Shown one piece after another: positions 3,873 through 32,506 of a stretch of DNA of 37,595 nt (positions within the stretch are counted from its first letter, which is position 1; each line of letters opens with the position of its first letter). The notes beneath the pieces are model-generated. The model did no database searches. It was not told the origin of the DNA and saw only the letters and a program-made list of their open reading frames with translations. This stretch comes from Roseomonas sp. (GTDB lineage Bacteria > Pseudomonadota > Alphaproteobacteria > Acetobacterales > Acetobacteraceae), in contig DATCMG010000529.1 in assembly GCA_036563555.1 (NCBI GenBank), positions 1 through 37,595 of the forward strand, given 5' to 3'. The position numbers were made by a program, and so were the translations under genes.

Positions 3873-4841
3873 TCACAGCCCCACCTTGCCCGCTGCATTG
3901 TCCACGAAGAGGCTTCCCCGTCGGATGTAGCCTCGCAGCACCGGCAGGGACTTGTGACGGCTCTGGTTCTGGATGTGCGCTTCCGGCACGCCGGCCCGCG
4001 CTGCCGTGGTGATGAAGCCGCTGCGCAGGCTGTGGCCGGCATAGGTCTCGGGCGGGTATCCGGCCGCCGCGACAGAGGCCTTCACGACTCGCGCGACATC
4101 CCGATCCGAGAGGCGCGCGGCGCCCAGTCCGCCATGCCGGTTGACGCTGCGGAAGACGGCGCCGGCCTCGATGCCGGCAGCCTTCAACCAAGCGCCCAGC
4201 GTCAGGACGGGGCAGGTCCGCTCGGAGCTGCCGAAGGGGATAGCTATCTCGGTACCCCGGCCTTCCTGGTCCGTCTTCGCACGGCGCAGCGTGAGGATCA
4301 GACCCTCGGGGACGAAGGCGACATCAGCAGCATCCAGCGCCACCAGCTCCGATCGGCGCAGCGCCGCGGCGAAACCGACCAGGAGCAGCGCCCGATCTCT
4401 CAACGGGCGCAGGCCGGGCCGCTTCTCCAGCTTATCCACGGCATCGCGGATCACGGTCGACACCGCCGCGTCCTTCTTCTGCGGCGCCGTACCATGGGTG
4501 CGCCGGATCCCCTTCATCGTCTCGCGGATGGCAGGGTGGCCGGTGTCGATCCGATGGCCGGCGAGACGGTGTGCCTGCCCAATCGCCACCAGGCGCATGG
4601 AGAGAGACGCAGCCTTGTGGGTGCTGGCCCGCGCGGCGAGGAAGGTGCCGACCGTCTCAGGCGAGGCGGGGAGGGCGGTGCGCCCAGCCTCATCGCACCA
4701 GGCAGCGAAGTCTACCCAGGCGGCGCGATAGGCGCGGCGCGTGTTCGCGGCCGAGGCCTCGCGCGCATAGGCCAGCGCCTCGTCCGACATGGCTGGTGCC
4801 GCAGGCATCAGCAAGGCTGACGAGGCCGTCACGAGAGACAT
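3873..4841 (-). CDS. tyrosine recombinase, Cre-like plasmid resolvase
   Basis: ATG 4841 after GGAG; SAM-like N-domain (SAANTRRAYRAAW..F..WC); catalytic RRSEL, AKTDQ, HSLRSG, RHKS, GYIR. Confidence 0.92.
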   Translation of the reverse strand: MSLVTASSALLMPAAPAMSDEALAYAREASAANTRRAYRAAWVDFAAWCDEAGRTALPASPETVGTFLAARASTHKAASLSMRLVAIGQAHRLAGHRIDTGHPAIRETMKGIRRTHGTAPQKKDAAVSTVIRDAVDKLEKRPGLRPLRDRALLLVGFAAALRRSELVALDAADVAFVPEGLILTLRRAKTDQEGRGTEIAIPFGSSERTCPVLTLGAWLKAAGIEAGAVFRSVNRHGGLGAARLSDRDVARVVKASVAAAGYPPETYAGHSLRSGFITTAARAGVPEAHIQNQSRHKSLPVLRGYIRRGSLFVDNAAGKVGL

Positions 4842-7679: not shown

Positions 7680-7681
7680 GA

Positions 7682-8981: not shown

Positions 8982-9035
8982 CTCTCAAGCCAGCTATGGA
9001 TCACTCTTTCCAGACATGTTGCTTACTCCTGTCGC

Positions 9036-9870: not shown

Positions 9871-10170
9871 CGTCCCAACCTCCTGTCCATGCCCAGCTGG
9901 TATCCGGCAACCATTGTTCCGGACCGAAGGGGCCGGAATAGGCTGCCCCATGGACGCCAGCGAGCCCCCTGCCCCGCCCGGATCCCTGCGGCTGCACACC
10001 AGCCTACTGGGCGACCTCCTCGTGACCGGCTGGTGGAAATGGCGGTGCTACTTTGCCCTGAATCGCCGGTAACTGCCATTACCATGCACCAGAAAGGAGC
10101 GGTTGGCGGGTCGGAAGGAAGTTCGAAGACGCGCTTCGCAATTTTATTTGGGCCCGACCCAATTTACTCA

Positions 10171-10199
10171 TTGACCAATATCCTCGCTTCCCCTAAGTA
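10171..10199 (+). promoter_or_regulatory. sigma70-type promoter, probably giving a leaderless mRNA
   Basis: TTGACC-N17-TAAGTA, 6 nt before ATG 10206; no SD; AT-rich upstream region. Confidence 0.55.
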
Positions 10200-10205
10200 C
10201 CTTCC

Positions 10206-11129
10206 ATGAGCAATGGTGGCCCCGAGTTTCGTGCCGCATTGACCGCCCTCGGTTTTTCCGAGGCTCGGGCGGAAGCTACCATCCGCTATCTTGGCGAAAA
10301 TGGTGAGGTACTCCGGGGCGGGCGGGGCCGTCGTCGCAAAGACGACCGTGCGTGGGCGGCCAGGGACTATGCCGTCACGATCCTTGGGCTTGGCGCCATC
10401 AAACCGATTGACGCTCCGTCTGTAGCAAGGGCTTTAGGGGAGCTTAGACATACCGCCTCCAGCCTCCACACCACCATTCGGAATGATGTCGGCGAAGTTA
10501 CCGCCATTCAACAGGTTCCGGACCGCATCGTTGATGTGTCTCTTCGGTCTGTGTTGGCGGCGCAAATGGAACTTTTGGCCGAGAATACGACCGAGGAACG
10601 GCAGGTGCTGCGTCAGGCTGCACAGGGTCTCTTCATTCGCCTTGATGCTGACCGTCTTGAGGCTTCTGTCCCCTTCCAGTTTGCAGGCGATGTATGGGGG
10701 TTGGACCAGTTTGGCCCCCCGCAACCCAACCTGCTTCTCCCTGAGCCTCCCCGACTGTCTTGGGGCTTCGAGGTGAAGCTGGAAATTGAGATCGTCTTCA
10801 TTGCTGCCGACCTGCTGGCCGAGACTAGGGCCCAGCGGAACGGCGGCTTACTGCCGCCCAAGGGTGAGGAGCCGACGAGCAACTCCGATCCCAAAGACGG
10901 CGCCCATCATGAATACAACGACGCCTCGGACCCTGGCAGGTCCGAGGCGTCTAGTTGTGCTCGTGATGGTACTACCCAGTCGCACCTTACTCATGCGTCC
11001 AGGCCGTCAGACAGCCTGCATGGTAAGGAAAACGGGAATTTCGCACAATCGCGAATTTCCGTGAGCGGCTGGTCCCCCGAAATCGCTCGTCAGAGGACCA
11101 CCCCGAAATGCCCGCCCTTGATGGCCTGA
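10206..11129 (+). CDS. hypothetical protein, first gene of the replication operon (possible N-terminal DNA-binding domain)
   Basis: 307 aa ORF with upstream promoter; basic GGRGRRRK segment; low-complexity C-terminus overlapping hairpins. Confidence 0.6.
   Translation: MSNGGPEFRAALTALGFSEARAEATIRYLGENGEVLRGGRGRRRKDDRAWAARDYAVTILGLGAIKPIDAPSVARALGELRHTASSLHTTIRNDVGEVTAIQQVPDRIVDVSLRSVLAAQMELLAENTTEERQVLRQAAQGLFIRLDADRLEASVPFQFAGDVWGLDQFGPPQPNLLLPEPPRLSWGFEVKLEIEIVFIAADLLAETRAQRNGGLLPPKGEEPTSNSDPKDGAHHEYNDASDPGRSEASSCARDGTTQSHLTHASRPSDSLHGKENGNFAQSRISVSGWSPEIARQRTTPKCPPLMA
10912..11048 (-). ncRNA. candidate antisense RNA 1 (promoter plus terminator)
   Basis: Minus-strand TTGTGC (11048-11043)-N17-TACCAT (11025-11020); perfect 13-bp hairpin 10920-10951 followed by GTTGTATT. 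Confidence 0.5.
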
Positions 11130-11410
11130 TCCCCCTTCCGGCCGTGCCCGCCGCTGTCCTGAAACTAACCGGGACCGAAACAGACCCCATCGCCCGCGCC
11201 TCCGTGCGTGAGCGCCGGGTGCGTGCCGTCGTCGCCCAGCAACCGGACCTTGCTGCCCGGATCGGCGGGCGCCTGTTTGTGCTGGACCAGGAACCGAAGC
11301 TGCGCGCCATCGCCGCGGCCCTGGGGCTCACGCTCCCGACGTCCGCGGCGAAGCCCTCCCGTGCCCATCGCGCCTCGTCCTCCAACGGTGAGGCGGCGGT
11401 CGCGGCCTGA
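11108..11410 (+). CDS. hypothetical protein
   Basis: RBS AGAGGA; overlaps the previous stop; ends in EAAVAA as is typical of phage/satellite operon genes. Confidence 0.6.
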   Translation: MPALDGLIPLPAVPAAVLKLTGTETDPIARASVRERRVRAVVAQQPDLAARIGGRLFVLDQEPKLRAIAAALGLTLPTSAAKPSRAHRASSSNGEAAVAA

Positions 11411-11420
11411 AAAGGCCAGC

Positions 11421-11545
11421 TTAAAATGCCGCCGCCCACCCCCGGCCTGTCAGGGCCGAAGATGGGCGGGGCGGTACTGCTACAGGGATAATGCGACAAC
11501 TCTACACGCCCAACTGAAATAGCAGTTCTGCCAAGGTCATTTCAA
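11421..11545 (-). ncRNA. candidate antisense RNA 2 (promoter plus terminator)
   Basis: Minus-strand TTGAAA (11545-11540)-N18-TATTTC with extended TG; GC hairpin ~11429-11474 followed by CATTTTAA. Confidence 0.45.
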
Positions 11546-11579
11546 GTCCAGCGACCGTCGCCCGCGAGGGAGGCGAGAC

Positions 11580-12146
11580 ATGCGCTTTTCGTCCCATAAT
11601 AACCGCAGCGGCTATGCACCTCGCCCCGGTGTTGCCTGCCTCGATCAGCCTGGGCAGATCTCCAAGCTGATCGCTGCCCTCGACGGCACCGGCCATGCCT
11701 TTGCCCTGCCACTCTACCGAGCCGCCCTGGCGGGCGAACTGGCAATGGCGGCTCTCCTGCCCGGCGGGCGCGTGCCGACCCGCCTGTTGGACCACACTCG
11801 CCCGCCGACTGTGATCGTGGTCTCGGGCGATCCCGCTAATCCGACCGAAGCAGCCTCCCCTCCCGAGGCGTTCCCCCAGGCGCGTCGCCTGCTGGCTTGG
11901 TCCGCCTCCGTCATGCTCCATGCAACTGGCGGGAAGGAGGCTCATTATCGGGCGGTCGTGGCCGGGGCGAAAGCCTGGCGCCGGGTCCTGCTGATCGAGA
12001 CGGCGACCTCGCAGGAAGATGCATGGCTTGCCTTGGTAGAGGCTGAACGTGAGCGCCGCCTGGCTTCCGGCCGCGTCTTCCCGGCGGTCTGCATCAGCGC
12101 CCGTCCCCGCGGTGGCGTGCATCCCGTGTGGGGGACGCAGGCATGA
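11580..12146 (+). CDS. hypothetical protein
   Basis: RBS GGAGG; 188 aa; ATGA-coupled to the next gene. Confidence 0.7.
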   Translation: MRFSSHNNRSGYAPRPGVACLDQPGQISKLIAALDGTGHAFALPLYRAALAGELAMAALLPGGRVPTRLLDHTRPPTVIVVSGDPANPTEAASPPEAFPQARRLLAWSASVMLHATGGKEAHYRAVVAGAKAWRRVLLIETATSQEDAWLALVEAERERRLASGRVFPAVCISARPRGGVHPVWGTQA

Positions 12147-12328
12147 GCCCCGCCCCTATCCGCCTGACGCTTCTGCCGGACTTGCCGAATGCTGACGGCG
12201 AGCCGCGCGCCGGCTTGGTCCTGCCGCTCCCCCCTAACTCCACCTCCAGGCGCGCTGCCCTCGCGATCTTTCCCAGCGTGACTGCTGCACTGATGGAGAA
12301 GGTGCGACTGGAAGGGGGCGCGGCATGA
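12143..12328 (+). CDS. small hypothetical protein
   Basis: ATGA overlaps at both ends (12143-12146, 12325-12328); ends in GGAA. Confidence 0.65.
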   Translation: MSPAPIRLTLLPDLPNADGEPRAGLVLPLPPNSTSRRAALAIFPSVTAALMEKVRLEGGAA

Positions 12329-12663
12329 GCGGCTTGAGCGCTCCTCCTCCCTTCCGCCCTGTAGGCGATGTTTTAACCGAGGTGGTGCAGCGCGCGGCAG
12401 AAGCGGTGATGGTCGAGCGGGTATCCGTTCGGCCGATCCGTGCCGGGTTCGCCTATGCGTCAATCCGGCTGCGGGACGTGTCTCTCAACGGCATCGAGGC
12501 GACGCGCGATACCTCTGGCCGCGTCACCTTAAAGTGCCCGATGCAGCGCGATCGCCATGGCCGTGAGTGGCCGGTCTTCGCGCTGCAGCCCCGTGCCTTA
12601 GAGGCTGCCACCGCCGCGGTCGCCGCGGTCTGGCCGCCCCCCAATTGCGGGGGCGCCGGTTGA
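12325..12663 (+). CDS. SpoVG-like nucleic-acid-binding protein (possible SSB)
   Basis: Pattern AYASIRLRDVSLNGIEA...VTLKCPMQRDRHGREWPV resembles SpoVG beta-strand order; TTGA-coupled to the primase. Confidence 0.5.
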   Translation: MSGLSAPPPFRPVGDVLTEVVQRAAEAVMVERVSVRPIRAGFAYASIRLRDVSLNGIEATRDTSGRVTLKCPMQRDRHGREWPVFALQPRALEAATAAVAAVWPPPNCGGAG

Positions 12664-15600
12664 CCGAAACCATCACGATCTTCCGGACTACCCCGACCCC
12701 CCAGGGGGCGCCGCGCTACGCCACGAAGCAGTGGATGTGGTCGGCCTCCTCTGGGAGTTGGAGCAAGTTTTCCTACGATGCTGGTGCGCAATTCACGGCC
12801 GAGGAGCGCCAAGTGGCGTGCCTCGTGGATGTGGCTTCGGTGGTGGAGGACAGCCGTCACGACCCCCGCGTTTTTGTCGTGCGCGGCAAACTGCTGCCCG
12901 AGGCGCTCGCGGCTCTGGCGGAAAACCCGCAGTATCGGTTCCGGCGGGCCAAGAAGGTCAGCAAAACCGGCAAGGCGGCGACGCTGGCCGAGGTGGCCCG
13001 TCGCTGGGTGATGATCGACATCGACGGGTATCCCATGCGGGATTCCGCCGATCTCGCCACAGATCCGGAAGAGGTCATCGAAAGCGCTATCCGCGACCTG
13101 CTACCACCCTGCTTCCATGACGCGGCTTGCTTCTGGCAGCTCTCCAGCTCGGCAGGGTTCGTGGCCGGTGTCCTCAAGGTTCACTTGTTCTTCTGGCTCG
13201 CGGAACCGATCAGCAACGAGGACTTCAAGCTCTTCCTGCACGTTCATGCCCCCGGCGTGGACCGCGCTCCCTTCAACGCTGCTCAACCCCATTACATTGC
13301 GGATCCTGTCATTGAAGGTGGCCACGATCCGCTCCCCCGCCGGACAGGCTGGATCAAGGGGCTGGATGATGAGGTGACGCTCCCGGCACTGGACTTGGCC
13401 GCACTGCGGGCAGCCATCCATAAGCGCCGGGAAAAGGTCGCGACCGGCGCCGGCCTCGATCCCTTCGCTGCTCGCACTGTGGCGGGCGCGCTGGCGCTCC
13501 TGGGCGATGGTGAGGGGCGTGAGGGGTGGCACTCTCCGCTGCGCCGGGCCACCCTGCTTTATGCGTACCAGACTTCGCCCAAGAACCGAGACGACGATGC
13601 AGTAAAGGTCGCGTGCCGGGACGCGATCCAGGCTGCGGCAGAGCGCGAGCCGGGGCAGCACGCGGCGGCCGACCTCGCCCGGTTCGGCTCCGACGCTTAC
13701 TTGGATTCTTTGCTCGATGGCGCCTTCGCCTGGATCGATGCCACCAAGCGCGAGATGCCGGAAGGCGTTGTCCCCTATCACGAGGCGCCCGCACACAGCG
13801 TTGAGGACGCGCGCGGCGCCATCACTGGGCAGGTCGGGGATTTCCTGACGGCGGCGACGGCCTGGCACAACCTGCCCGAGGAGAAGCGGATTGATCCGCC
13901 TCAAGTTGGACTTGCGATCGAGGTTGGAGGTGGGAAGTCCACCGTCACCCGGGCCGAGGTAAGCCCCTGGTCCGAGCAGCAGGAAGCGGCGCGACTTCCC
14001 CACCGTGTTCTCTTCGGCGTGCCAACCGTGAAGCTGGGCGGCTTGGCTGAGCAGGCGGAATCGCACTTCGCGGACATGCCTGGCCGGAAGGTGGCCATCC
14101 ATCGCGGGCGCAGTCAGGTCGATCCCAAGAATCCGGATCAGAAAATGTGCGCCGATTTGGATGCCGTGAAGCTGGCGGTCTCGGCCGGAGAAAGTGTCGA
14201 AACCGCTGTGTGCGGCAGCGGCAAGGACGGGAAGCCCTCATGCCCCTTCCGGAAGGGCGAGAACCAATGCGGCTACTACCGCCAGCAGAAGGCGGTTGCC
14301 GAGGCGGATGTGGTGATCGCGGCGCACGAAGCAGTCTTCCATATGCCCGCTGGCGTGAAGAAGAACCTGGGCCTGGTCGTGATGGACGAGGCCTGGTGGC
14401 AAGACGGGGTGAAGACTGGCCGCTTTGTCTTCGTGGATGACCTGATCGACAGCGTGAAAATGTTCCCCGTGCTGAAGCATACGCCGGGCGGGCAGCAGAT
14501 TCCTGACCGGGAGGGAACGGGGGATCTCCTCCAATTCCGCGAGCAATTAGCGCATGTGCTGTCGGCGGCACCGGAGGGGTATCTGCAGGCCAGTGCTCTG
14601 CGCGCAGTCGGGCTGACCGCGGCCGATTGCGCTGCGGCAGCCGGACTGGAGTGGAAGCGCAAGCGGGAGAAACTGATGCGCCCGGGCATGTCGCCCGAGG
14701 ACCGCCGCGCTGCAGCCGCGGAGGCCGGCATCAACGCGCAGATCGTCCGCCTCGCGGGCATGTGGTCGACCCTGGAGGAGTTGCTGGCAAGCGGGGCGGA
14801 GGCCACCGGCCGTGCCGAGATGGCGTGGCAGCAGGACCGTGAAGGGAAAGACCGCTGGGCCATCTGCCTCAACACCTTGGACAAGGTGGTGGCGCCTGTC
14901 CTGGGCGTGCCGGTGCTGCTGCTGGACGCAACAATGCCAACGGGTCTCGTGCGGGCCTATCTGCCACGCCTTGAGGCAGCTCCTCCGGTGCGGGTGAAGG
15001 CTCCTTTTATGGAGGTGCGCCAGGTCCGCGGCGGCTGGGGGAAGACCACGCTCCTGCCTGGGCGGATCACGATCAAACTGGACGAGCACGCGCAACCCAA
15101 GGCCTACGCGCCCGGGGATACGACACCCCGCCCCCTGCCCTCCACGCTGGCCGAGTTGCGGGATTTTGTGGCGGGAGAGACCCGTGGCGAGCCCGCCCTC
15201 GTCGTCACCTACCAGGACGCCGAAGCCGCCTTCGCTGGGCTGTCAGGGGTGGAGACGGCACACTTCAACGACGTCGCCGGTAAGGATGGGTGGAAGGATG
15301 TCCGGTATCTTTTCGTCATCGGCCGTCCCCGCCCCCGTTCCGACCAGGTGCGGGTGCTGGCAGCCGCCCTGACGGGTGAGCCGGTCGAAGTCGCGGAGAG
15401 CCACAAGGAAACGCGCGGCGTCCGGCTGGTGGACGGGAAAAGCGGCACTGTCGAGGTCCGCGCTTATGCCAACCCGGCCGCTGAGGCGGTGTCCGCCGCC
15501 ATCACCGACGCCGAGGTGATCCAGGCGATCGGCCGCGCCAGGGGCATCAACCGCACCGCGTTCAACCCTGTCCGGGTCTGGATCCTGGCGGACGTGGTGA

Positions 15601-16289
15601 CACCCTTGATCGTGGATGAGCTGCTGGATTGGCGCGATATCGCCCCTTCGGTGGTGGAGCGGATGGCCTGCCGGGGGATCTTCCTGACGAGCCCAGCTGA
15701 TGCCGCCAAGGCTTACTCCGACCTGTTCCCGACTATTGAAGCCGCGAAGAAGGCGCTGCAGCGGGGAGGAGTCGCTAAGGCCGATTTCGGGGACAATCCC
15801 CTAAGAATATCTCTTCTTAGGAGAATGTCCCCGAAATCCCCTCTGAGGTTCACCTACCGCCCCCCTGGAAGGGGACAGCAGACGCGCCAGGGCTGGGCGC
15901 GGCCCGAGATGGATCCGGAGGATGTCTGGCGCTTCCTGGAAGATCACCTGGGAGAGATGGCCGTCTTCACCCCGGAGGAACCGGAGCCTGAGCCTCCTGA
16001 GCCGCCCCAGCCGCCGGGAGGGCAGCCCTGCCCCTCTGACGAACCGCCGGAAGGGTCACCAGAGCCTGCTGAGGCGCCTGGAGGGGTCGGGAGCCCTGTC
16101 GGGGTGCCGATCCGGGTGCCAGCGGGCTCCGTGGTGCTGGATGAGGCTGAGTTCGAGCCGGCGGGCGGGTTCTGTGCGGTCCCGGGTGGGGTGCCCTTGG
16201 GCCGGTTCCCGGAGGATCCCCCGGTCACGCTGCGACCACACAACACGCCCAAATCAGAGGGATTCAACGAACGTCATGCGTGGAAATAG
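12660..16289 (+). CDS. AEP primase fused to SF2 (DinG/XPD-like) helicase; putative replication protein
   Basis: AEP motifs WVMIDIDG, SSS...KVHLFFWL, VDRAPF; helicase GGGKST, VVMDE, LLLDAT, QAIGRAR; four Cys (KMC, AVC, SCPF, QCGY) between motifs I and II; TTG start coupled to the upstream stop. Confidence 0.8.
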   Translation: MTETITIFRTTPTPQGAPRYATKQWMWSASSGSWSKFSYDAGAQFTAEERQVACLVDVASVVEDSRHDPRVFVVRGKLLPEALAALAENPQYRFRRAKKVSKTGKAATLAEVARRWVMIDIDGYPMRDSADLATDPEEVIESAIRDLLPPCFHDAACFWQLSSSAGFVAGVLKVHLFFWLAEPISNEDFKLFLHVHAPGVDRAPFNAAQPHYIADPVIEGGHDPLPRRTGWIKGLDDEVTLPALDLAALRAAIHKRREKVATGAGLDPFAARTVAGALALLGDGEGREGWHSPLRRATLLYAYQTSPKNRDDDAVKVACRDAIQAAAEREPGQHAAADLARFGSDAYLDSLLDGAFAWIDATKREMPEGVVPYHEAPAHSVEDARGAITGQVGDFLTAATAWHNLPEEKRIDPPQVGLAIEVGGGKSTVTRAEVSPWSEQQEAARLPHRVLFGVPTVKLGGLAEQAESHFADMPGRKVAIHRGRSQVDPKNPDQKMCADLDAVKLAVSAGESVETAVCGSGKDGKPSCPFRKGENQCGYYRQQKAVAEADVVIAAHEAVFHMPAGVKKNLGLVVMDEAWWQDGVKTGRFVFVDDLIDSVKMFPVLKHTPGGQQIPDREGTGDLLQFREQLAHVLSAAPEGYLQASALRAVGLTAADCAAAAGLEWKRKREKLMRPGMSPEDRRAAAAEAGINAQIVRLAGMWSTLEELLASGAEATGRAEMAWQQDREGKDRWAICLNTLDKVVAPVLGVPVLLLDATMPTGLVRAYLPRLEAAPPVRVKAPFMEVRQVRGGWGKTTLLPGRITIKLDEHAQPKAYAPGDTTPRPLPSTLAELRDFVAGETRGEPALVVTYQDAEAAFAGLSGVETAHFNDVAGKDGWKDVRYLFVIGRPRPRSDQVRVLAAALTGEPVEVAESHKETRGVRLVDGKSGTVEVRAYANPAAEAVSAAITDAEVIQAIGRARGINRTAFNPVRVWILADVVTPLIVDELLDWRDIAPSVVERMACRGIFLTSPADAAKAYSDLFPTIEAAKKALQRGGVAKADFGDNPLRISLLRRMSPKSPLRFTYRPPGRGQQTRQGWARPEMDPEDVWRFLEDHLGEMAVFTPEEPEPEPPEPPQPPGGQPCPSDEPPEGSPEPAEAPGGVGSPVGVPIRVPAGSVVLDEAEFEPAGGFCAVPGGVPLGRFPEDPPVTLRPHNTPKSEGFNERHAWK
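15783..15838. repeat. long inverted repeat inside the rep gene (origin candidate)
   Basis: GATTTCGGGGACAATCCCCTAAGAA-TATCTC-TTCTTAGGAGAATGTCCCCGAAATC; 23/25 match; AT-rich centre. Confidence 0.8.
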
Positions 16290-16542
16290 CAGGGCGGCGG
16301 AGGATTCTCGCCTGGAGCAGCAGCGGCTACGGGCCGAGCAATATCGCGAGCGGCGCCGTCGCGGGGCCGTCCTCGTCCCTGTCGAGGTCGAGCGGCGCGA
16401 CCTGGCCGCCTTGGAGGGCCTGGGAATGTTGGATCCGGGAGAGCGCGATCCGCAGGCGATTGCGGCGGCCGTGAACCGCTTTCTCGCCGGAGCTGGGGCG
16501 GTTGCGGCACTGGGGGATGTGTGGTGGCCGGTGGCAGAGTAA
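16276..16542 (+). CDS. small basic hypothetical protein (possible DNA-binding)
   Basis: RBS AGAGGGA; RxEQYRERRRRGAVLVPVEV...AIAAAVNRFL. Confidence 0.6.
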   Translation: MRGNSRAAEDSRLEQQRLRAEQYRERRRRGAVLVPVEVERRDLAALEGLGMLDPGERDPQAIAAAVNRFLAGAGAVAALGDVWWPVAE

Positions 16543-16563
16543 GGGGCGTGGAGCTTGCCCATC

Positions 16564-16929
16564 ATGGTTAAGCCCGATGCCGTACCTGCCAACGTCCTCA
16601 TGCCGACTGGCCGAAACTTGCCCAGTGGATGGGCAGCCTTCATTGCGCTGCGCCGACCGGTTGAGGAACCGGCGCCGCGCCGGCATGGCAACACGATCCA
16701 TGGGCGCTACAGTCGCGAGGGGATCGCTACCCGGCGCCAACATAGAGTTCTGTGGCAATGGCTGCGGGACGGCTGCCGAGGCCCCTCACCGCTGCCGCGG
16801 CCGATTGGCTGGAGAGGCTTTCGCGGCACCTTCCGCGCGCGCGCGAGGCCAGGGCGAGAACCTTGGCTGAGACTGAGGCCGACCAGGGCCAGGGCTGGCA
16901 CGAGCCGCCGCGGCCTCGGCGGGACCTGA
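16564..16929 (+). CDS. protein with HGGxSTG-family C-terminal motif
   Basis: HGNTIHGRYSREGIATRR resembles the GNxNxxKHGxYxxE tail of HGGxSTG proteins found beside terminases; Cys/HGG core absent. Confidence 0.4.
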   Translation: MVKPDAVPANVLMPTGRNLPSGWAAFIALRRPVEEPAPRRHGNTIHGRYSREGIATRRQHRVLWQWLRDGCRGPSPLPRPIGWRGFRGTFRARARPGREPWLRLRPTRARAGTSRRGLGGT

Positions 16930-17297
16930 TCGGGCGACCATCGTCTTTCTCGCCCGAAATGGAAGCGCGCATCGTGGACAGGCTGGCAGACGGGGTGCCA
17001 CTGGCCAGGATGTGCCGGGAACCGGGGATGCCGGATCCTGAGACCGTGCGGCGCTGGCGGCGCTCTAACCCCAGCTTTGATGCCCTGTTCCACGTCGCCC
17101 AGGTCGAGGGGTGGCGCGAACTGGCGCAGCGGGTCGTGGAGGACGTGGAGGCGGCGCTGGCGGCCGGCGCATCGGTAGAGCGGGCGCGATTGATGTTCGA
17201 TGCGCGGCGATGGCTGTTAGCGCGCCAGGCGCCGGAGTTTTTCGGGTCCGGGCGGGCGCGGCGTCGCCGCCAGCGGGAGATGGATCGCTCAGCCTGA
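16758..17297 (+). CDS. terS: phage terminase small subunit-like protein (Sf6-type)
   Basis: GRPSSFSPEMEARIVDRLADGVPLARMCREPGMPDPETVRRW...F...ARLMFDARRWLLARQAPEFFG. Confidence 0.8.
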   Translation: MAAGRLPRPLTAAAADWLERLSRHLPRAREARARTLAETEADQGQGWHEPPRPRRDLIGRPSSFSPEMEARIVDRLADGVPLARMCREPGMPDPETVRRWRRSNPSFDALFHVAQVEGWRELAQRVVEDVEAALAAGASVERARLMFDARRWLLARQAPEFFGSGRARRRRQREMDRSA

Positions 17298-17375
17298 GTG
17301 GGGTTTCCCGCAAGTTGCAGGAAACTCGTCTGGAGGGTCGCCCCGGCGGCGGGCGAGAGTTTGAAAAGCCGATAC

Positions 17376-17434
17376 GAATTAAGTCGTAACGAATGGCCAT
17401 TCTGTAGAATTAGATTAGAATTAAGTCGGAACGA
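17376..17434 (+). repeat. AT-rich direct repeat pair
   Basis: GAATTAAGTCGTAACGA (17376-17392) and GAATTAAGTCGGAACGA (17418-17434), 16/17 identical, 42-bp period; partial GAATTA between them. Confidence 0.75.
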
Positions 17435-17567
17435 TTCGGCGCCCGGTCGGCGGAGTTTTCGGAAGCCCTGAAAGGGCTGGCCGTCCAGCCCGGCCCGCCT
17501 GGCGGTGTTTGGCCGTACCCGGCGGCCGCCCTAAGCTTCCCGCCGGAAACGTCGGGAACTAACCTTC

Positions 17568-22760: not shown

Positions 22761-23423
22761 ATGGGAAAGATACTGGTTTCAGGCGGAATCAAGGGGGGGA
22801 TCGGCAAGTCCACCCTGGCGGCGAACCTGGCGGTTCTAGCGGCGCGTGTCGGCAAGGAAGTGCTGCTGGTGGATGCGGACCCGCAGGAGACCACTGCTAC
22901 CTGGGCGGCAGCCCGTGGTGAGCAGCCGGGGGAGCTGGCGCCGGTCACAACCGTGACCATTGTCGGTAAGCAGATCCGGGAAGAGCTGAAGCGCCTAGCC
23001 GACAAGTACGATGTGGTGATCGTGGATGCGGGGGCCCGGGACACCAGCACCCAGCGCGCGGCCCTCTCCGTCGCTAACCTAGTCTTGCTCCCCTTCCCTC
23101 CCCGCGGGCCGGACCTCTGGACCTTGGACGCTGTGGCCCAGACAGTCAGCGATATCCGCACCATCAACGAGGGGCTACGGGCTGTGGCCTTCGTAAACCG
23201 GGCGGACCCGATCGGCAGTGACAATGCCGAAGCGGAAGCAGCCTTTGCAGAGCATGCTGAGGTAATCGAGGCGGCCCCAATACGGGTCGGAAACCGGAAG
23301 GGGATCGCCACCAGCCACTTGATGGGGCTGGCAGCCTGCGAGGCCCAACGCCCGGACGGCAAGGCCGTAGCGGAGTTAGATGCACTCTTTCGGTATGCCT
23401 TTGATACCACCAATGCACCGTAG
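22761..23423 (+). CDS. parA: ParA family partition ATPase (short, type Ib)
   Basis: Deviant Walker A KGGIGKST; LLVDADPQ; YDVVIVDAG; no N-terminal HTH. Confidence 0.92.
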   Translation: MGKILVSGGIKGGIGKSTLAANLAVLAARVGKEVLLVDADPQETTATWAAARGEQPGELAPVTTVTIVGKQIREELKRLADKYDVVIVDAGARDTSTQRAALSVANLVLLPFPPRGPDLWTLDAVAQTVSDIRTINEGLRAVAFVNRADPIGSDNAEAEAAFAEHAEVIEAAPIRVGNRKGIATSHLMGLAACEAQRPDGKAVAELDALFRYAFDTTNAP

Positions 23424-23444
23424 AAGTGCCTTAGAGGTGCATAG
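23387..23444. repeat. parS-like repeat cluster 2
   Basis: Second copy of CTTTCGGTAT-N18-GCACCGTAGA plus TAGAGGTG, at the parA 3' end. Confidence 0.55.
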
Positions 23445-23702
23445 ATGACCAAGCCCAGCAAGTTCAGTCGGCCACAGCGCGAGCCTACCTCAGCCGAGGT
23501 CGAGCGGGTGATCGCCAAAGCTGAGACCCGAGATGATCCCGCCGTCGTGGCGGCACCTGAGGCAGAGGTGCGCTTCACCATGGTTCTGCCGTCGAGCATG
23601 TCGGAGCGGGTGGACAAGGCCAGAAAGGGAGCAGGTGGCATGGCCCGGCTAGCCTGGATCCGGCTAGCTATTGCCGAGAAGCTGAACCGAGACGGTGTGT
23701 AA
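23445..23702 (+). CDS. ParG-like ribbon-helix-helix centromere-binding protein
   Basis: Flexible N-terminus, then VRFTMVLPSSMSERVD...RLAWIRLAIAEKL (RHH); directly after parA. Confidence 0.75.
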   Translation: MTKPSKFSRPQREPTSAEVERVIAKAETRDDPAVVAAPEAEVRFTMVLPSSMSERVDKARKGAGGMARLAWIRLAIAEKLNRDGV

Positions 23703-27120: not shown

Positions 27121-27609
27121 TCATGCCTCCTCTAGACGGTGGTCGTATTCGGCTCCCAGCAAAGCCCCCAAGTCGTGCCCGAGGTTGGCAGCGATGAAGT
27201 CAGCCGCGCGCCGGCTGTAGAGGCCCGCGTCACGCAGGCCTCGTGACGTCGGTTCGTGGTTCATGTCGTATTCGGCGGCCCGTCGCGCATAAGTCGCCGC
27301 CAGGGCGATCACCAGCAGCGCGTCCGTGATGGTCTCCGGCTCCGTCTCCAGTGCGGCGTCCTCGGCGGCGAAGAAGGCGCTTGCGGCCTCGCTCCACAGG
27401 CTGCGGAGGCGGTCTTCCTCAACCTTCGGTCCCTCGCACGCTGCCCACATTTCTTCTGCGGCGAGCATCGCCTGATCCAAGGCAGGGAGGCGGCAGACGA
27501 TCTCCTCGACCCTGCCGATGCGCTGGGGGCTGGCGGGGGCGGGGATGGGGGGCTCCGCGATGGCGGCACCCCCGATGGTGGCCAACAGGCCGCGGCGAGC
27601 GGGGCTCAC
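27121..27609 (-). CDS. twin-arginine-leader hypothetical protein (paralog 3)
   Basis: MSPARRGLL; GTGA-coupled to the upstream gene; PETITD motif. Confidence 0.7.
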   Translation of the reverse strand: MSPARRGLLATIGGAAIAEPPIPAPASPQRIGRVEEIVCRLPALDQAMLAAEEMWAACEGPKVEEDRLRSLWSEAASAFFAAEDAALETEPETITDALLVIALAATYARRAAEYDMNHEPTSRGLRDAGLYSRRAADFIAANLGHDLGALLGAEYDHRLEEA

Positions 27610-28040
27610 GGATGAGGCTCCAGGGGCTTGCCCGCTAGGTCCTCGGCAAGACTCCAGAGCAGGGCATCCTCCGCGGACAGCGCCTCGCCGGCCAGGTTGG
27701 TCTGCACGAGCGTCATCGCGACTTCGGCCTTCGCCACTTTCCCAGCGGGAGTGAGGGCCGGCGTGTTGATGACGACATTCAGCGGAGCGTGCTGCGCGCT
27801 GGCCGCCTCAACTTGGACATGGTGCTGTCTGTCCGCCTCTGCCTTGTCTTCGGCCTCCTCCGCTGCGCACTGCTTCTCGAAGGAGGCGTTCCACTCAGCC
27901 TCGCGCGCCATGTACTGCGCGCAGGCTTCCAGCAACGTGGCGTCGGGATTGGGAGCGGCGGCACCAGCAGAGGCAGGCACCACGGGGACGGCGGCCAGTG
28001 CAGCAACACTGCCTAGCAGACTGCGACGGGCGGCCTTCAT
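27606..28040 (-). CDS. twin-arginine-leader hypothetical protein (paralog 2)
   Basis: MKAARRSLL; PNPDATLLEAC; PALTPAGKVAKA; ATGA coupling. Confidence 0.75.
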   Translation of the reverse strand: MKAARRSLLGSVAALAAVPVVPASAGAAAPNPDATLLEACAQYMAREAEWNASFEKQCAAEEAEDKAEADRQHHVQVEAASAQHAPLNVVINTPALTPAGKVAKAEVAMTLVQTNLAGEALSAEDALLWSLAEDLAGKPLEPHP

Positions 28041-28447
28041 GCTCCGCCCTCCAGCCGCAGCAGGTCGCTGACCAGTTGCCAAGCCCAATCCCCGGCCGGG
28101 CAGTCCCGCGGATTCTCGGTTCCGTCCGTGTTTTGCGCTTCGGCTTTTGCGGCGCGAGCTTTGGCGACCATGCCGGCGAGCGTCACGGGGACGGCTGCGG
28201 CGATGGCATCTCGTGTGCGCTCGTAGGCGAGCCAGAGAGGGTCGTCCTCTTGCTCCAGGTGGCCGCCATAGGCGCAGTAAGCCTCGCGGTTGGCGTTATG
28301 CTCCGCGCAGATGCGGATCAACTCCGCGTCCCGGTTCGGCGCCGGCCTTCTGTCCAGCGTGTCGGCGGTGGCAGCCTGCGCTGTCAGCACGGCGCCCGGG
28401 GTGATGGCGAGGACGGCCAAGCCGCCCAGCAGGTTCCGGCGGCTCAT
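28037..28447 (-). CDS. twin-arginine-leader hypothetical protein (paralog 1)
   Basis: MSRRNLL; PNRDAELIRIC; PVTLAGMVAKA; ATGA coupling. Confidence 0.75.
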   Translation of the reverse strand: MSRRNLLGGLAVLAITPGAVLTAQAATADTLDRRPAPNRDAELIRICAEHNANREAYCAYGGHLEQEDDPLWLAYERTRDAIAAAVPVTLAGMVAKARAAKAEAQNTDGTENPRDCPAGDWAWQLVSDLLRLEGGA

Positions 28448-28770
28448 GCGCGGGCACTCCCGAACACGCTGCCGAAGCCGCGCAGATTGGCGGGGATGGG
28501 GTCGCCGTTGCGGCGGTAGGCCGCGCGCATCTGGCGGGCGCTGGGCCGGTGCACCACTACGGGGCGGCGATCAGGGGAGAGGGTAATGGGCTGGGCGCTC
28601 GCCTCGTCGGCGTCCTCCTCGCCGTCTTCGTCGGGCTCCAGATCCGGATCCCAATCCATCGCATCGAGCTGGGCGATGGCGCGGGTGATAATGTCCTCCA
28701 GTTCGGCCCGGCGCCGGGAACGTGCTGCAGCATCGCTCGACGTGCTATTCACTCTCTTAGCCTCTCGCAT
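28444..28770 (-). CDS. acidic hypothetical protein of mobile elements
   Basis: IITRAIAQLDAMDWDPDLEPDEDGEED motif; coupled to the downstream gene. Confidence 0.7.
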   Translation of the reverse strand: MREAKRVNSTSSDAAARSRRRAELEDIITRAIAQLDAMDWDPDLEPDEDGEEDADEASAQPITLSPDRRPVVVHRPSARQMRAAYRRNGDPIPANLRGFGSVFGSARA

Positions 28771-28914
28771 GGGTGTTGGCCCTTGCTCGGGGTCAGGAAG
28801 GGGAGAGGGGACAGCCTCTCCCCGACCGACCTTGCCCGCCTGTTGGAGCGGACTGTTGCCAGGGATGCCGCCCTGGCTCGGGTGCCCGGATCACCCGCCG
28901 GGCGCGGGGTCTGG

Positions 28915-29223
28915 TCAGGGCGCGAGGGCGCCTTGTCGGCGGGCCTGGAAGGCGGCCTCGGCCTGATCGAATGGGGTAGGGGAGGGAGCGGCCTCGCGGA
29001 TCATCTGCACCCGCACTCGGCCCCGGGGCTGCCAGTAGTCTCCCCGCATCAGGGCGACCCAGCCGCCCAGCTTCTGCGCGGCGAGGTGGGCGATGATCCG
29101 CTCCATCTCGGCCGCGTCCGGCTCGCCATGACGTCCCAGCAGGACGTGGCGGCCATCGCTCCCCAGGAGGATGAAGGTCTCCCCCTGGGGTGAGGATCTT
29201 CTGGCCTGGCGCTCCATGGTCAT
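28915..29223 (-). CDS. hypothetical protein
   Basis: 102 aa ORF with RBS GAGG in the leftward operon. Confidence 0.6.
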   Translation of the reverse strand: MTMERQARRSSPQGETFILLGSDGRHVLLGRHGEPDAAEMERIIAHLAAQKLGGWVALMRGDYWQPRGRVRVQMIREAAPSPTPFDQAEAAFQARRQGALAP

Positions 29224-29230
29224 GGCGGCC

Positions 29231-29623
29231 TCAGATCGCCAGAGCAGCCATGGCAGCCTGCGCGGCGGCCAGCCGGCGCTCAGCCTTGCGCAGGGCGGCG
29301 CGGGCCTTGTTCAGGGCACCCATGGCGGCGGCCTGGGCTGCGCGGCGATCAGCGGCCGGGCGCTGATTAGCCATGCCCAGACGGCGGCAGGCGGCGCGGT
29401 ACAGAGCGGCCTCAACCCGGTGCTGCGACATGGCGCCGACGAGTTCCCGCTCCGCTGCCTCGGCGCGCTCGGTGGCGCTCGGTGCGGCGCCAGCCTCGAT
29501 CAGCAGGGGCCGGCCGCGCATCACGGCGACGCTGCGAAGGATGGCGTCCGTCACCAAGCCATCGGTGAACAGGTCAGCCTCACGGGCGACGGCGGGGTTC
29601 AGGGCGGGGTGGAGGGAGAGCAT
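29231..29623 (-). CDS. Ala-rich helical hypothetical protein
   Basis: ATG 29623 after AGGA; first gene divergent from the Xre regulator. Confidence 0.6.
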   Translation of the reverse strand: MLSLHPALNPAVAREADLFTDGLVTDAILRSVAVMRGRPLLIEAGAAPSATERAEAAERELVGAMSQHRVEAALYRAACRRLGMANQRPAADRRAAQAAAMGALNKARAALRKAERRLAAAQAAMAALAI

Positions 29624-29631
29624 GGGGTAGT

Positions 29632-29710
29632 TCCTGTTGAGCCGAAATAGTTGATGTGCTACCAAATAGCTCACCCAAAGAGGGGTGTCAACCAATACGG
29701 CTCAAAAGGA
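29632..29710. promoter_or_regulatory. divergent promoter/operator switch
   Basis: 23-bp inverted repeat (29632-29654 / 29688-29710, 19/23); central palindrome TGTGCTA-N5-TAGCTCA; minus-strand TTGACA-N17-TATTTG. Confidence 0.65.
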
Positions 29711-29715
29711 CTAAA

Positions 29716-29958
29716 ATGGCTCTTACGGGCAGTCAGGTGCGGATGGCGCGCGCGCATCTCCGATGGTCTGTGGCGGACTTGGCAGAGAAGTCGGGGGTTA
29801 GCGTCTCCACCGTAAAGCGGGGGGAGAGCGTTGACGGCGAGATGCCGATCACTGGTCCGAATGCTGCCGCGCTTCAGCGGTGCCTTGAGGCTGCGGGCGT
29901 GGAGTTCATCCCCGAAAATGGGGGTGGCGCAGGCGTCAGGATGCGGGAGCGGTCCTGA
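29716..29958 (+). CDS. Xre family HTH regulator
   Basis: LTGSQVRMARAHLRWSVADLAEKSGVSVSTVKRGE...LEAAGVEFIPENGGGAGVR. Confidence 0.92.
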   Translation: MALTGSQVRMARAHLRWSVADLAEKSGVSVSTVKRGESVDGEMPITGPNAAALQRCLEAAGVEFIPENGGGAGVRMRERS

Positions 29959-30038: not shown

Positions 30039-30307
30039 CTCCCTACAGGATGATTGTGATGGGGCGAGTTCGCCTCCTCCTATAGATGGATCGGCTCCCT
30101 ACACGGAGCTTCTCATGTCCGGTCCCAATAGACGCTTCCCTTCTCGCCCAGGCCCAGAAAGGAGCTTGCGGTGCTGTAGCCTCATCTGGATAGGCGCTAG
30201 GGCAGCAGGAGCCCCGGCCATGCCGAGAACCTCGGACGAAGATCATGATGACCTTTCGAGCGTCGTGACGATACTTGGAATGCTCCTCAAGCCCAGGAGC
30301 TCGGCCC

Positions 30308-30559
30308 ATGTCTGACCTGCTTCCCCGCATGCGCCGGAACCCCGCCGCGGATTGGACCATCGCTGACGTCAAACAGATCTGCGGGGCGTTTGGGGTCCGA
30401 TGCATCCCTCCGACCGGCGGGGGATCACACTGGAAGGTGTCCCATCCTTCCCAAGTGGAAATTTTGACCATTCCAGCCCGGCGCCCCATTAAGGTGGTCT
30501 ACATCCGCAAGCTGGTTCGCTTCGTGGAAGCCGTAGGAGCAGCCCATGGCGGCGCGTGA
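30308..30559 (+). CDS. hicA: HicA family mRNA interferase toxin
   Basis: GGGSHWKVSH; ILTIP..RPIKVVYIRK; RBS AGGAG. Confidence 0.85.
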   Translation: MSDLLPRMRRNPAADWTIADVKQICGAFGVRCIPPTGGGSHWKVSHPSQVEILTIPARRPIKVVYIRKLVRFVEAVGAAHGGA

Positions 30560-30767
30560 CTACCCCTTCGTGGTCGAGCCCCTGCCCCCGGAAGACGGCG
30601 GCGGGTTCGTCGCCCTCGTACCCGATCTGCCCGGCTGCATGTCCGACGGGGAAAGCCCCGAGGAGGCTGCCCGGAACGTCCTCGACGCCATCACCTCCTG
30701 GATCGAGGAAGCCCAGGCTCTCGGCCGCCCTATCCCGGCGCCCCGGCGCCATCTGGAAGTCGCCTAG
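30546..30767 (+). CDS. hicB: HicB family antitoxin (short, no C-terminal DNA-binding domain)
   Basis: EDGGGFVALVPDLPGCMSDGESPEEA..N..DAI..WIE; GRPIPAP. Confidence 0.9.
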   Translation: MAARDYPFVVEPLPPEDGGGFVALVPDLPGCMSDGESPEEAARNVLDAITSWIEEAQALGRPIPAPRRHLEVA

Positions 30768-30782
30768 TCCGCTTCGGCGCCT

Positions 30783-31280
30783 ATGTTCGGGCATTCCCGC
30801 CGGCGGCCCTATACGCCGCCTTCACCCCCGCCCTCTCCAGAGCCGGCCCGCTGGCTCTCCCTGGACCAGGCGGCCCAATACGTCTCCCTCAGCCAAGTAG
30901 CCTTCAAGCGTTTCGCTCAAGAGGGGCAATTGCCCGCGGCCGTCGAGGGCGGAGAAACCCGCGATCCCAAGTGGGACCGCCTCGCGATCGATGCCGCGAT
31001 GGAGAGCGGATACCAGACCGAGCCACCCCAGCCGAAACCCCGCCCCGCTGGGTTCGGCTTCCAGAAGAAGCCCCGGGAGGTCCGCCTCCCTGAGTGGCCA
31101 CGCGGCATGCCAGCCGAGATAGCGGCGGCCTATGTGGGCCTGCCCCTGGAGGCCTGGAACGGCATTGTGGCCGCTGGTGATGCGCCGGCCCCGGTGGCTC
31201 TGACGCCCGAGCATCGCGTCTGGCTCCGCGAGACGCTGGATGCTTGGCTGGATCAGAAGACGGCCAGGGGCGCTCCCTAG
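30783..31280 (+). CDS. tandem double excisionase/AlpA-like wHTH protein
   Basis: Two units: WLSLDQAAQYVSLS...GQLP...WDRLAID and PRGMPAEIAAAYVGLP...GDAPAP...VWLRETLDAWLD. Confidence 0.75.
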   Translation: MFGHSRRRPYTPPSPPPSPEPARWLSLDQAAQYVSLSQVAFKRFAQEGQLPAAVEGGETRDPKWDRLAIDAAMESGYQTEPPQPKPRPAGFGFQKKPREVRLPEWPRGMPAEIAAAYVGLPLEAWNGIVAAGDAPAPVALTPEHRVWLRETLDAWLDQKTARGAP

Positions 31281-31308
31281 GGGTCCGCTCACTGTGCGGA
31301 CCCCTAGG
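31276..31308. terminator. hairpin between convergent genes
   Basis: 13-bp perfect stem CCTAGGGGTCCGC / GCGGACCCCTAGG; no U tract. Confidence 0.55.
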
Positions 31309-31330
31309 CTGGACCTACAACAATGCCGTG

Positions 31331-31678
31331 TCAGCCCCGCCACTCGCCCTTGCCGTGCTGGAGCAGCAGCCAGACCCCGCCGAAGCCCGGCGTCGCTGGC
31401 GGCCCGCTTAGCCCCACGATATCGGCCGGCTCACCGCAGCGGCTGCAGCGCAGCTTCGGCACCACCTCGGCCCAGGTCAGGCCAGCGGGGACATAGGGCA
31501 CCAGGTCGGCCACCAGACGCCGTTGTTTCGAGCAGCGGCCCGCGCATTGGACGACCAGCTCCCATCCCTTGGCCGGATCGGCAAACTCGGCCACGGGGCG
31601 GCTCATAGCTTCCCGGCCGCGGCGGACTGGCTCGGGCTCGGGCTCGTCTTCGGTCACTGCTTCATCCCTGCTGGTCAC
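31331..31678 (-). CDS. small zinc-ribbon-like hypothetical protein
   Basis: CAGRC and LRCSRCG Cys pairs. Confidence 0.55.
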   Translation of the reverse strand: MTSRDEAVTEDEPEPEPVRRGREAMSRPVAEFADPAKGWELVVQCAGRCSKQRRLVADLVPYVPAGLTWAEVVPKLRCSRCGEPADIVGLSGPPATPGFGGVWLLLQHGKGEWRG

Positions 31679-31770
31679 TGGTCCCCGGCCGTCGAGACGT
31701 GCCGTAGCGGGAAACGGGGGTCTCCGCTGGGGCGTACCGATAAGGCGGAACAGCGCTGAGGCGTGGAATA

Positions 31771-31823
31771 TACGGGCCGCCCGTAATTATGTCTTGCTAG
31801 TGATACGGGATACCCGTATTAAT
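31771..31823 (+). promoter_or_regulatory. TA promoter with two operators
   Basis: TACGGG-N3-CCCGTA at 31771-31785 and 31804-31818; TTGCTA-N17-TATTAA ends 6 nt before ATG 31829 (leaderless). Confidence 0.7.
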
Positions 31824-31828
31824 GTCGC

Positions 31829-32176
31829 ATGCAGTCAGTCGTCGAGACCCGGGCCTTCCAGATCGACGCCAAGGCCGCTGGCATGAACGCTGATGAGGTG
31901 TTTGCCCTGATCTCCTACCTCGCCGCGACCCCGGACGCTGGGGAGGTCATGGTGGGCACGGGCGGCGCTCGGAAACTGCGGTGGCGGCGGCCGGGCTCGG
32001 GCAAGTCAGGCGGCTACCGCATCATCACCTTCTACGCCGGCCGCGACGTGCCGGTGTTCCTTTTGAACGCCTTCACGAAAGGGGAGCGGGCCAACCTGTC
32101 CCAGGCAGAGCGGAACACCCTGGCGGCCATCCTGCCCCGTCTCGCGGATGCGTATCGAAGCAGGAAGAGGGTCTAA
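31829..32176 (+). CDS. higB: RelE/HigB-like toxin
   Basis: GTGGARKLRW; GSGKSGGYRIITFY; VFLLNAFTKGERANL; toxin-first order. Confidence 0.88.
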   Translation: MQSVVETRAFQIDAKAAGMNADEVFALISYLAATPDAGEVMVGTGGARKLRWRRPGSGKSGGYRIITFYAGRDVPVFLLNAFTKGERANLSQAERNTLAAILPRLADAYRSRKRV

Positions 32177-32224
32177 TCGTCGCCATCACAACGTCATCTG
32201 ATGAAGCAACATGAGGAGCCTACA

Positions 32225-32506
32225 ATGAGCAAGCTGGGTGCGCGCATGATCGCCGCCGCGGAAGAGGCCCTTGCCTTCGCGGAGGGCAAGGATACCGGCG
32301 CGGTGATCCACACCGTTCCTGACGTGAAGGCAATCCGCCAGCGTCTTGGGCTGACACAAGCCACCTTCGCAGCCCGCTTCGGCCTGCCCGTCGGGAATGT
32401 GCGGGATTGGGAGCAACGCCGCTCGACCCCGGACGGCGCGGCCCGCGTGCTGCTGCGTGTGATCGAACGCGCCCCTGACGTGGTAGCGGAAGCCGCGGCT
32501 GGTTAG
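32225..32506 (+). CDS. higA: HigA-like HTH antitoxin
   Basis: DVKAIRQRLGLTQATFAARFG..VGNVRDWEQRR.TPDGAARVLLRVI; RBS GAGGAG. Confidence 0.88.
   Translation: MSKLGARMIAAAEEALAFAEGKDTGAVIHTVPDVKAIRQRLGLTQATFAARFGLPVGNVRDWEQRRSTPDGAARVLLRVIERAPDVVAEAAAG

Follow-up and report, generated by a model that had tools for sequence, protein, structure and literature searches.

The stretch of DNA described here (the window) is a whole contig of 37,595 nucleotides from Roseomonas sp. (DATCMG010000529.1, assembly GCA_036563555.1). It carries an operon for a primase-helicase and a small terminase (TerS), a palindrome inside the primase-helicase gene, and plasmid maintenance genes; by sequence comparison it is well supported as a member of a family of small alphaproteobacterial plasmids. 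Both the identity of this family and the conservation of the palindrome stand on much firmer ground than does any reading of lifestyle, for which packaging by a helper phage is proposed below. The contig (C188 in this analysis, where C, G and L numbers denote contigs, genomes and loci) is the longest of 961 (N50 6.1 kb) in a 4.7-Mb genome bin that is 87% complete and has its nearest homologues in the Acetobacteraceae. The central features are:

12660..16289, + strand: primase-helicase of 1209 aa with a TTG start; N-terminus like an archaeo-eukaryotic primase (AEP), followed by an XPD/DinG-fold superfamily 2 (SF2) helicase
15783-15838, no strand assigned: palindrome with 25-bp arms and a 6-nt AT-rich loop, inside the primase-helicase gene
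16863..17297, + strand (open frame from 16752): Sf6-type TerS of ~144 aa with a short Arg-rich tail, from an orphan clade
17371-17392 and 17413-17434, + strand: pair of AT-rich direct repeats of 22 nt each, a candidate for a TerS/pac site or else a promoter

Primase-helicase

The primase-helicase is likely the replicase of the plasmid, and its ratio of nonsynonymous to synonymous substitution (dN/dS) is 0.13. Residues 36-273 match the DNA primase family PHROG 16950 (E 7e-30); this N-terminal region appears AEP-like, as the AEP-type motif residues (DxD, sxH, D) are conserved and the protein has AEP-labelled Atlas neighbours, while the primase-domain profile found no match in the PDB. A structural model built from a 68-sequence alignment reached a predicted local distance difference test (pLDDT) score of 91.6, compared to 36 for a single-sequence fold, and its residues ~380-1000 match DinG/XPD helicases (Foldseek E 4e-13; Z 19.2, root-mean-square deviation 7.3, 418 aligned). 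This part features two RecA domains with a Cys-rich insertion, as in XPD/DinG SF2 enzymes; the primase-helicase label given by an earlier sequence-only reading is borne out by both matches, and the helicase can be specified as XPD/DinG-type SF2. Invariant residues of the replicase include D120, D122, H175, K426, C497, C518, C528, C537, D576 and E577, and the four Cys are likely to bind Fe-S.

The replicase family comprises 9,103 clusters at E <= 0.001, and the protein is matched in 33 of 400 family genomes; some relatives have a toprim primase instead. Only three of 50,697 phage records match, all three Xylella phage and through the primase domain alone; no sequenced phage among these records carries the full replicase.

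Intragenic palindrome

The element ranks first among the centred palindromes of the 4.7-Mb bin, with 24 of 28 pairs and a DNA fold z of -7.3, and it encodes the sole low-confidence (disordered) linker of the replicase model. A palindrome is present at the same position in 29 of 31 distinct homologous genes, with 19-27 pairs compared to 13-19 in control windows, and the peptide encoded at this position varies widely among homologues. The two genes without it (L019 and L027) were omitted from the palindrome alignment. In the resulting 29 rows, which were centred on the palindrome and so favour structure, 90% of cells pair and 21 of 22 pairs show two-sided changes; this level was reached by none of 500 shuffles, and slid controls gave 40-51%. 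Within the homologous gene of four distant complete-plasmid records (L145-L148), the palindrome is again the top one.

A replication origin is the likeliest role inferred for this element; an RNA hairpin or a packaging site are possible alternative roles. The palindrome was absent from the sequence-only reading, which had noted the AT-rich repeats downstream of terS. As an origin these repeats are disfavoured because they follow the terS clade, not the replicase.

Plasmid relatives

Matches to the replicase occur in 16 of 72,556 plasmids, 14 of which are typed non-mobilizable; the two full-length matches in this set are R. mucosa plasmids of 27.9 and 24.4 kb. Full-length homologues are found on the complete plasmids NZ_CP147885 (27.9 kb, circular), NZ_CP025065 and NZ_CP015609. 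The R. mucosa plasmids repeat the layout of the window, namely g3-g4-g5-replicase-TerS, ParA, tyrosine recombinase, HicAB and a run of genes divergent from an XRE regulator. The plasmid reading is well supported because complete or circular plasmids of 17-36 kb from the Roseomonas group share this layout. Terminal repeats occur on G402:C99 (36.1 kb, 298 bp), G404:C101 (17.0 kb, 127 bp) and the toprim variant G090:C35 (19.3 kb, 127 bp); the circular 22.6-kb plasmid pCMU02 of Methylorubrum CM4 has a shorter homologue followed by three small genes and then a DUF5681 gene. The record NZ_CP015609 (L004) is filed as Bacillus safensis and matches the Roseomonas-type backbone gene for gene; it is likely mislabelled.

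Neither NZ_CP147885 nor NZ_CP025065 has a second replication initiator in its annotation, and none is present on the window contig; within the bin a RepA_C match lies on C820 and Rep3_N was not found. A search for RepC gave no match anywhere and is uninformative.

Small terminase and downstream repeats

The sequence-only reading had named a TerS at the end of the operon, and this is upheld by matches to PF20901 (E 2e-21, 76.6 bits against a cut-off of 27) and PHROG 1482 and by alignment to residues 7-113 of Sf6 gp1 (E 9e-16); the start was set by alignment with P0061. In a 44-row tree made by a quick method only, the window TerS falls in its own 9-row clade with a support of 100 and a long stem, and the short Arg-rich tail without a stalk is conserved across this clade. 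The clade members with usable context (the window, L109 and L105) have no TerL (large terminase) gene next to terS, nor does L102, of which only 296 bp downstream are available; TerL follows in 15 of 25 other TerS-family loci, with the TerL label of L103 and L132 not confirmed. Over 138 codons shared with L102 the dN/dS of TerS is 0.25; the gene is therefore maintained by purifying selection and is not decaying.

The AT-rich repeats reported downstream of terS are confirmed as two copies that are 86% alike (two matches against 0.02 expected by chance). Their core motif recurs directly past the stop of the L102 and L105 terS orthologues and has no further copy in the bin; since the core follows orthologous terS stops, the repeats fit a TerS-related site or a promoter. 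They overlap a sigma-70-like match of 9/12, which is at chance level.

Genes following the replicase

Downstream DNA could be compared in eight lineages whose replicase identity is at least 50%, and in seven of these the replicase is followed by TerS or a TerS-slot gene, from four unrelated families. The slot holds the PF20901 TerS in the window, a PF03592 TerS in L001, L002 and L004, a DUF5681 protein in L036 (replicase 87% identical) and L038, and a conserved open reading frame (ORF) plus an HGGxSTG protein in L037, L040 and L069. The C-terminal half of the DUF5681 protein is shared with the PF03592 TerS (56%), and the HGGxSTG protein has a weak match to TerS PHROG 9231 (E 4e-5). Tape-measure, neck, head-protease, scaffold or ejection genes are added in L037, L040, L069, L003 and L077; TerL, portal and major capsid found no match among the 129 + 88 proteins of relatives scanned. 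Distant primase relatives form integrase-primase-TerS islands.

Three relatives, L069 (G404:C101, a 17.0-kb circle), L040 and L066, carry genes for tape measures of 570-813 aa together with those for neck, head-protease or scaffold proteins, as well as proteins of 180-240 aa that lack an assignment and a capsid match; these are stronger satellite candidates than the window. L077 (G090:C35, a 19.3-kb circle), L082 and L073 have DNA-ejection-type genes (PHROG 4287, 598) and no tape measure; the large ORFs of L147 look ejection-type by eye only. In L144 (NZ_CP024585, a 9.7-kb circle) a g3 homologue stands beside a DUF5906 primase, an ORF in the TerS position and a short TerL-like ORF. An integrase-primase-Sf6-type TerS island of ~7 kb occurs in L058 (6838-13951), where it lies between two tRNA-Val genes, and in L059 and L060, and is tandemly repeated in L059.

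The sequence-only reading had noted the lack of TerL, portal, capsid and tail genes in the window, and none was matched among the scanned ORFs. Beyond the window the bin likewise yielded no virion genes for the families searched; genes expected of a phage-plasmid (TerL, portal, capsid, tail, lysis) were found in neither, within the same families. The window ORFs have no match to capsid or capsid-remodelling families (PF05065, PF03864), and PF05065 was not found in the bin; the search for PF03864 covered the window.

Operon and small genes

The co-oriented, coupled operon of the sequence-only reading stands in part. Nine + strand ORFs span 10206-17297 with gaps of -22, +169, -4, -4, -4, -14, +12 and -67 nt; coupling is genuine from 11580 on, whereas the 169-nt gap, which contains a weak GC hairpin (z -2.5), sets off the first two genes. 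Scans for promoters and terminators did not rise above chance. Apart from the replicase and TerS, the genes are:

10206..11129, + strand: g1, 307 aa, likely DNA-binding regulator; opens the module
11108..11410, + strand: g2, 100 aa, likely excisionase/AlpA-like small DNA-binding protein
11580..12146, + strand: g3, 188 aa, conserved hypothetical; family marker
12143..12328, + strand: g4, 61 aa, conserved hypothetical; homologues lie upstream of the replicase in relatives
12325..12663, + strand: g5, conserved protein of 93-112 aa, directly before the replicase
16276..16542, + strand: g7, basic protein (88 aa) that is a conserved partner of both g8 and the TerS clade of the window
16555..16929, + strand: g8, small conserved ORF of 124 aa that does not encode an HGGxSTG protein

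No match to g1 was found in the family libraries searched; it matches a local hidden Markov model (HMM) made from the first-position genes of five relatives (E 8e-11) and is likely to act as a DNA-binding regulator. The g2 protein matches a local HMM of nine second-position genes (E 9e-10), one member of which has a weak match to the excisionase family PHROG 1840 (E 4e-4); g2 is likely excisionase/AlpA-like, with the xis/AlpA assignment itself weak. In PLSDB g3 has six matches, all six on non-mobilizable plasmids and five of these labelled Roseomonas. The SpoVG-like label given to g5 went unconfirmed, as neither g5 nor its relatives match Pfam or the PDB, and g5 has no match among sequenced phages.

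The g7 protein is 65% identical to the ORF preceding TerS in L102 (dN/dS 0.38), and g7-like ORFs were seen by eye upstream of g8 homologues in L135, L136, L141, L142 and L143. The ORF at 16555-16929 had been read as HGGxSTG-like; the motif is absent, yet g8 is a real conserved ORF, with homologues in 13 of the 400 family genomes and a dN/dS of 0.27-0.43. It has neither the HGGxSTG nor the Cys motif, no NCBIfam match, and an E of 0.9 against a local three-sequence HMM; in L135 the g8 homologue is preceded, two genes upstream, by a true HGGxSTG gene.

Maintenance genes and contig setting

The remaining backbone features are:

3873..4790, - strand: tyrosine recombinase of ~305 aa (PF00589); likely dimer resolvase
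22761..23702, + strand: ParA (PHROG 164, E 5e-36) and its small partner
27121..29958, no strand assigned: XRE helix-turn-helix (HTH) gene divergent from six coupled hypothetical genes, together a second conserved module of the backbone
30275..32506, + strand: HicA/HicB-like and RelE/HTH toxin-antitoxin (TA) pairs, flanking an excisionase-like HTH gene

The gene earlier called a Cre-like resolvase is confirmed as a tyrosine recombinase; it is 75-80% identical to those upstream of the module in L037 and L038 and takes the divergent 'integrase' position in relatives. From the proposed parA/parG pair ParA holds, while its partner has no library match and is ParG-like by position and size only. Similarly, HicB, RelE and the HTH antitoxin of the two TA modules are confirmed and HicA is assigned by position and size only; HicA/B are 71-74% identical on NZ_CP147885. 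Homologues of the 27121-29958 module occur on L001, L004, L064, L065, L068 and L069; several genes of this run start with twin-arginine-like leaders.

The ends of the contig were not bridged by contigs of the one sequencing run examined. Transposase fragments lie at the right end; the left 136 bp are common to the window and the end of contig C405 and may represent the end of an insertion sequence (IS). One mapped sequencing run, possibly from the source sample, shows no differences over 1-19000, with a flat depth of ~8-10 along the contig only. A second assembly has the identical TerS listed for a contig of 39,571 bp.

No tRNA was found in the window. An Rfam scan returned a ROSE thermoregulator RNA above the gathering score (3717-3806, - strand), upstream of an Hsp20 gene, and a suhB/mmgR small RNA match below threshold (22298-22361, E 0.009), and nothing else. 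A small ORF is present in two copies (4867-5139 and 8715-8981), which form a 117-nt repeat, 75% alike and 3.8 kb apart; the cargo between them includes response regulators, a hydrolase and a solute-binding protein. Positions 5381-6543 share 90% identity with another contig of this bin, C786, which argues for recent exchange of cargo.

Proposed lifestyle and alternatives

It is proposed, with the case about evenly balanced, that the element is a satellite-plasmid using the packaging of a helper phage. ParA, its partner, the recombinase and the TA pairs would maintain the plasmid, and the replicase would open the palindrome and prime synthesis. Helper induction would switch on the operon through g1 and g2; TerS would then bind a site in or just past terS, possibly the AT-rich repeats, and steer the helper packaging motor onto plasmid DNA, so that a genome of ~38-40 kb is headful-packaged into helper heads of normal size. 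The short tail makes it uncertain that TerL is recruited directly; TerS may instead enter mixed rings with that of the helper, or interfere, and for the same reason the route through mixed rings is favoured over binding of TerL by the window TerS alone. The satellite lifestyle, which draws on the swappable TerS-type slot, the partial virion genes of relatives and purifying selection, is supported by comparison only. The episomal satellite-plasmid of the sequence-only reading therefore stands as to its plasmid backbone, which is well supported by relatives, and has its satellite part from comparison, on a contig that is unclosed.

Several observations weigh against packaging by a helper. Helper TerL, portal and capsid genes were not found in the 87%-complete bin, TerL was not found in two of four isolate genomes carrying relatives, and only two IMG/VR contigs carried a relative. 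TerL matches do occur in the genomes of Belnapia arida T18 and Roseomonas chloroacetimidivorans, environmental isolates with relatives. The window TerS has 15 residues beyond the last Sf6-aligned residue compared to 27 in Sf6, and in P22 deletion of the tail is reported to abolish TerL binding (PMC9611059); the same source describes some working TerS proteins as missing the stalk. With its 37-40 kb and abundant cargo the element is also big for a satellite. The contig has no terminal repeat, which leaves its circularity unsupported, and IS remnants lie at both ends. Among relatives, L039 has no TerS-type gene in the slot, the DUF5681 and HGGxSTG proteins are putative TerS equivalents by position and weak matches only, TerL is present in the more distant L075, L061 and L100 and, by eye, as a TerL-like fragment in L144, a head protease/major head match occurs in the likewise more distant L092, a second RepA occurs in G401 and G331, and a relaxase in G402 and NZ_CP090585. 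As to novelty, what is new is an undescribed alphaproteobacterial plasmid family, as satellite-plasmids have already been named (PMC13230959).

A rather unlikely, though serious, alternative is a domesticated plasmid of satellite ancestry, in which replicase and origin work while the shortened TerS has ceased to direct packaging and serves to regulate through DNA binding or to poison the rings with which incoming phages package their DNA; the short Arg-rich tail throughout the clade, the large cargo of sensors and transporters, the lack of helper genes in the bin, and the same replicase on plasmids with relaxase or type IV secretion system genes and no annotated TerS would all suit it. A regulator would have no need of the tape-measure, neck and ejection genes that recur with unrelated TerS-type genes in the slot, and the cis motif travels with the window-type terS. 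Improbable is a decayed phage-plasmid that lost its late genes and kept terS only because it heads them, directly behind the replication operon. P1-like phage-plasmids are described as decaying to plasmids, with terS retention reported among such elements (PMC10879196), and both the gradient of leftovers in relatives, from TerL to the L144 fragment, and the IS remnants at the contig ends are in keeping with this; the dN/dS of the intact, long-stemmed orphan TerS already weakens it, the full replicase is absent from sequenced phages, the virion genes of relatives do not form one contiguous phage block, and complete plasmids have no major capsid or portal match.

The module could also be a passenger on a larger plasmid or chromosome, joined via the IS elements at the contig ends, which is very improbable. 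The integrated relatives L043, L044 and L075, the R. mucosa AD2 backbone with an IS21-cut replicase inside a 416-kb plasmid, the RepA_C on another contig of the bin and the 136 bp in common with C405 point in this direction; by contrast, the replicase, palindrome, ParA, recombinase and TA genes of the window are intact, the contig holds both conserved backbone modules, and the 39,571-bp contig listed with the identical TerS is close in size to members of the family.

The window may represent a widespread, so far unrecognised alphaproteobacterial class of satellite-plasmids, marked by fusion of a primase to an XPD-fold helicase, a cruciform intragenic origin and a swappable hijacking cassette with TerS of four unrelated types, tape-measure, neck, scaffold or ejection genes and no capsid, in which the window TerS would join the helper ring; this broader claim is tentative and falls a little short of even. 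If true, it would account for the movement of many plasmids of 10-40 kb that are typed 'non-mobilizable' in Roseomonas, Methylorubrum and Roseivivax. Plasmids without known means of transfer are presented as an open question in a 2025 review, which mentions the suggestion that some are satellites (PMC12282955); the family provides cultured, fully sequenced candidates outside the Vibrio class, typed 'non-mobilizable' and with no replicon call shown. The primase-XPD-fold helicase and its covarying intragenic palindrome provide a new replicon marker, and a naturally tail-less TerS bears on how TerS recruits TerL.

Comparison with known systems

No published description of the family, its replicase or the palindrome was found in open-access text, subscription papers and supplements aside. 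The closest named elements are the episomal satellite-plasmids PISP and cf-PISP, named in Vibrio in 2026 and reported from no other genus (PMC13230959). They resemble the window family in being extrachromosomal, in having ParA and no integrase or tail module, and, for PISP, in the small terminase, and their status too derives from gene content; an episomal circle with ParA, a replication gene and no integrase is found in relatives, and the window contig itself lacks a terminal repeat. PISP and cf-PISP are described as 11-16 kb elements of Vibrio only, with RepA and a capsid-type protein, whereas the window family is alphaproteobacterial, 17-40 kb in size, and has a primase-XPD-fold helicase whose gene contains the palindrome, with no capsid match.

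Phage-inducible chromosomal islands (PICIs), including the Staphylococcus aureus pathogenicity islands (SaPIs), share with the window a recombinase divergent to a regulator, an xis/AlpA-like gene, pri-rep and terS; as described, PICIs lack both a plasmid state and genes for segregation, and their origin, located after rep, consists of an AT-rich stretch with iterons on either side (PMC6092414). The window differs in having ParA, no att or tRNA site and a likely intragenic origin, and its relatives are circular plasmids; instead of iterons after rep there are two 22-nt repeats only, after terS. Integrative mobile elements that are encapsidated in virions (VEIMEs) resemble the window in their primase/helicase, AlpA, TerS and alphaproteobacterial hosts, and one subgroup has ParA/RepA-like genes; more than 80% of VEIMEs are reported with integrases and they are seen in virions, whereas the window element is known from its genes alone (PMC9618062). 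EPIPs of Mycolicibacterium are similar to several relatives in combining TerS with tape-measure, connector and scaffold genes; they are described as 11-kb elements with a serine integrase and an actinobacterial host, isolated as particles, while the window element has TerS only (PMC12822802). A further element, pDolos, is also in print, as seen through citing papers.

The origin of N15 lies inside repA. The RepA of N15 and PY54 is likewise a single primase-SF2 helicase fusion that serves as replicase; N15 has a DnaG-type primase and is a full phage-plasmid, in contrast to the AEP-like primase and XPD/DinG-fold helicase of the window (PMC4889955). The window TerS shares the HTH and oligomerisation helices of Sf6 gp1 and differs in its Arg-rich tail, which replaces the residues carrying the beta-barrel stalk, and in having no TerL next to it. 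Taken across these systems, the window element would work like a PICI or a PISP and belongs to neither class.

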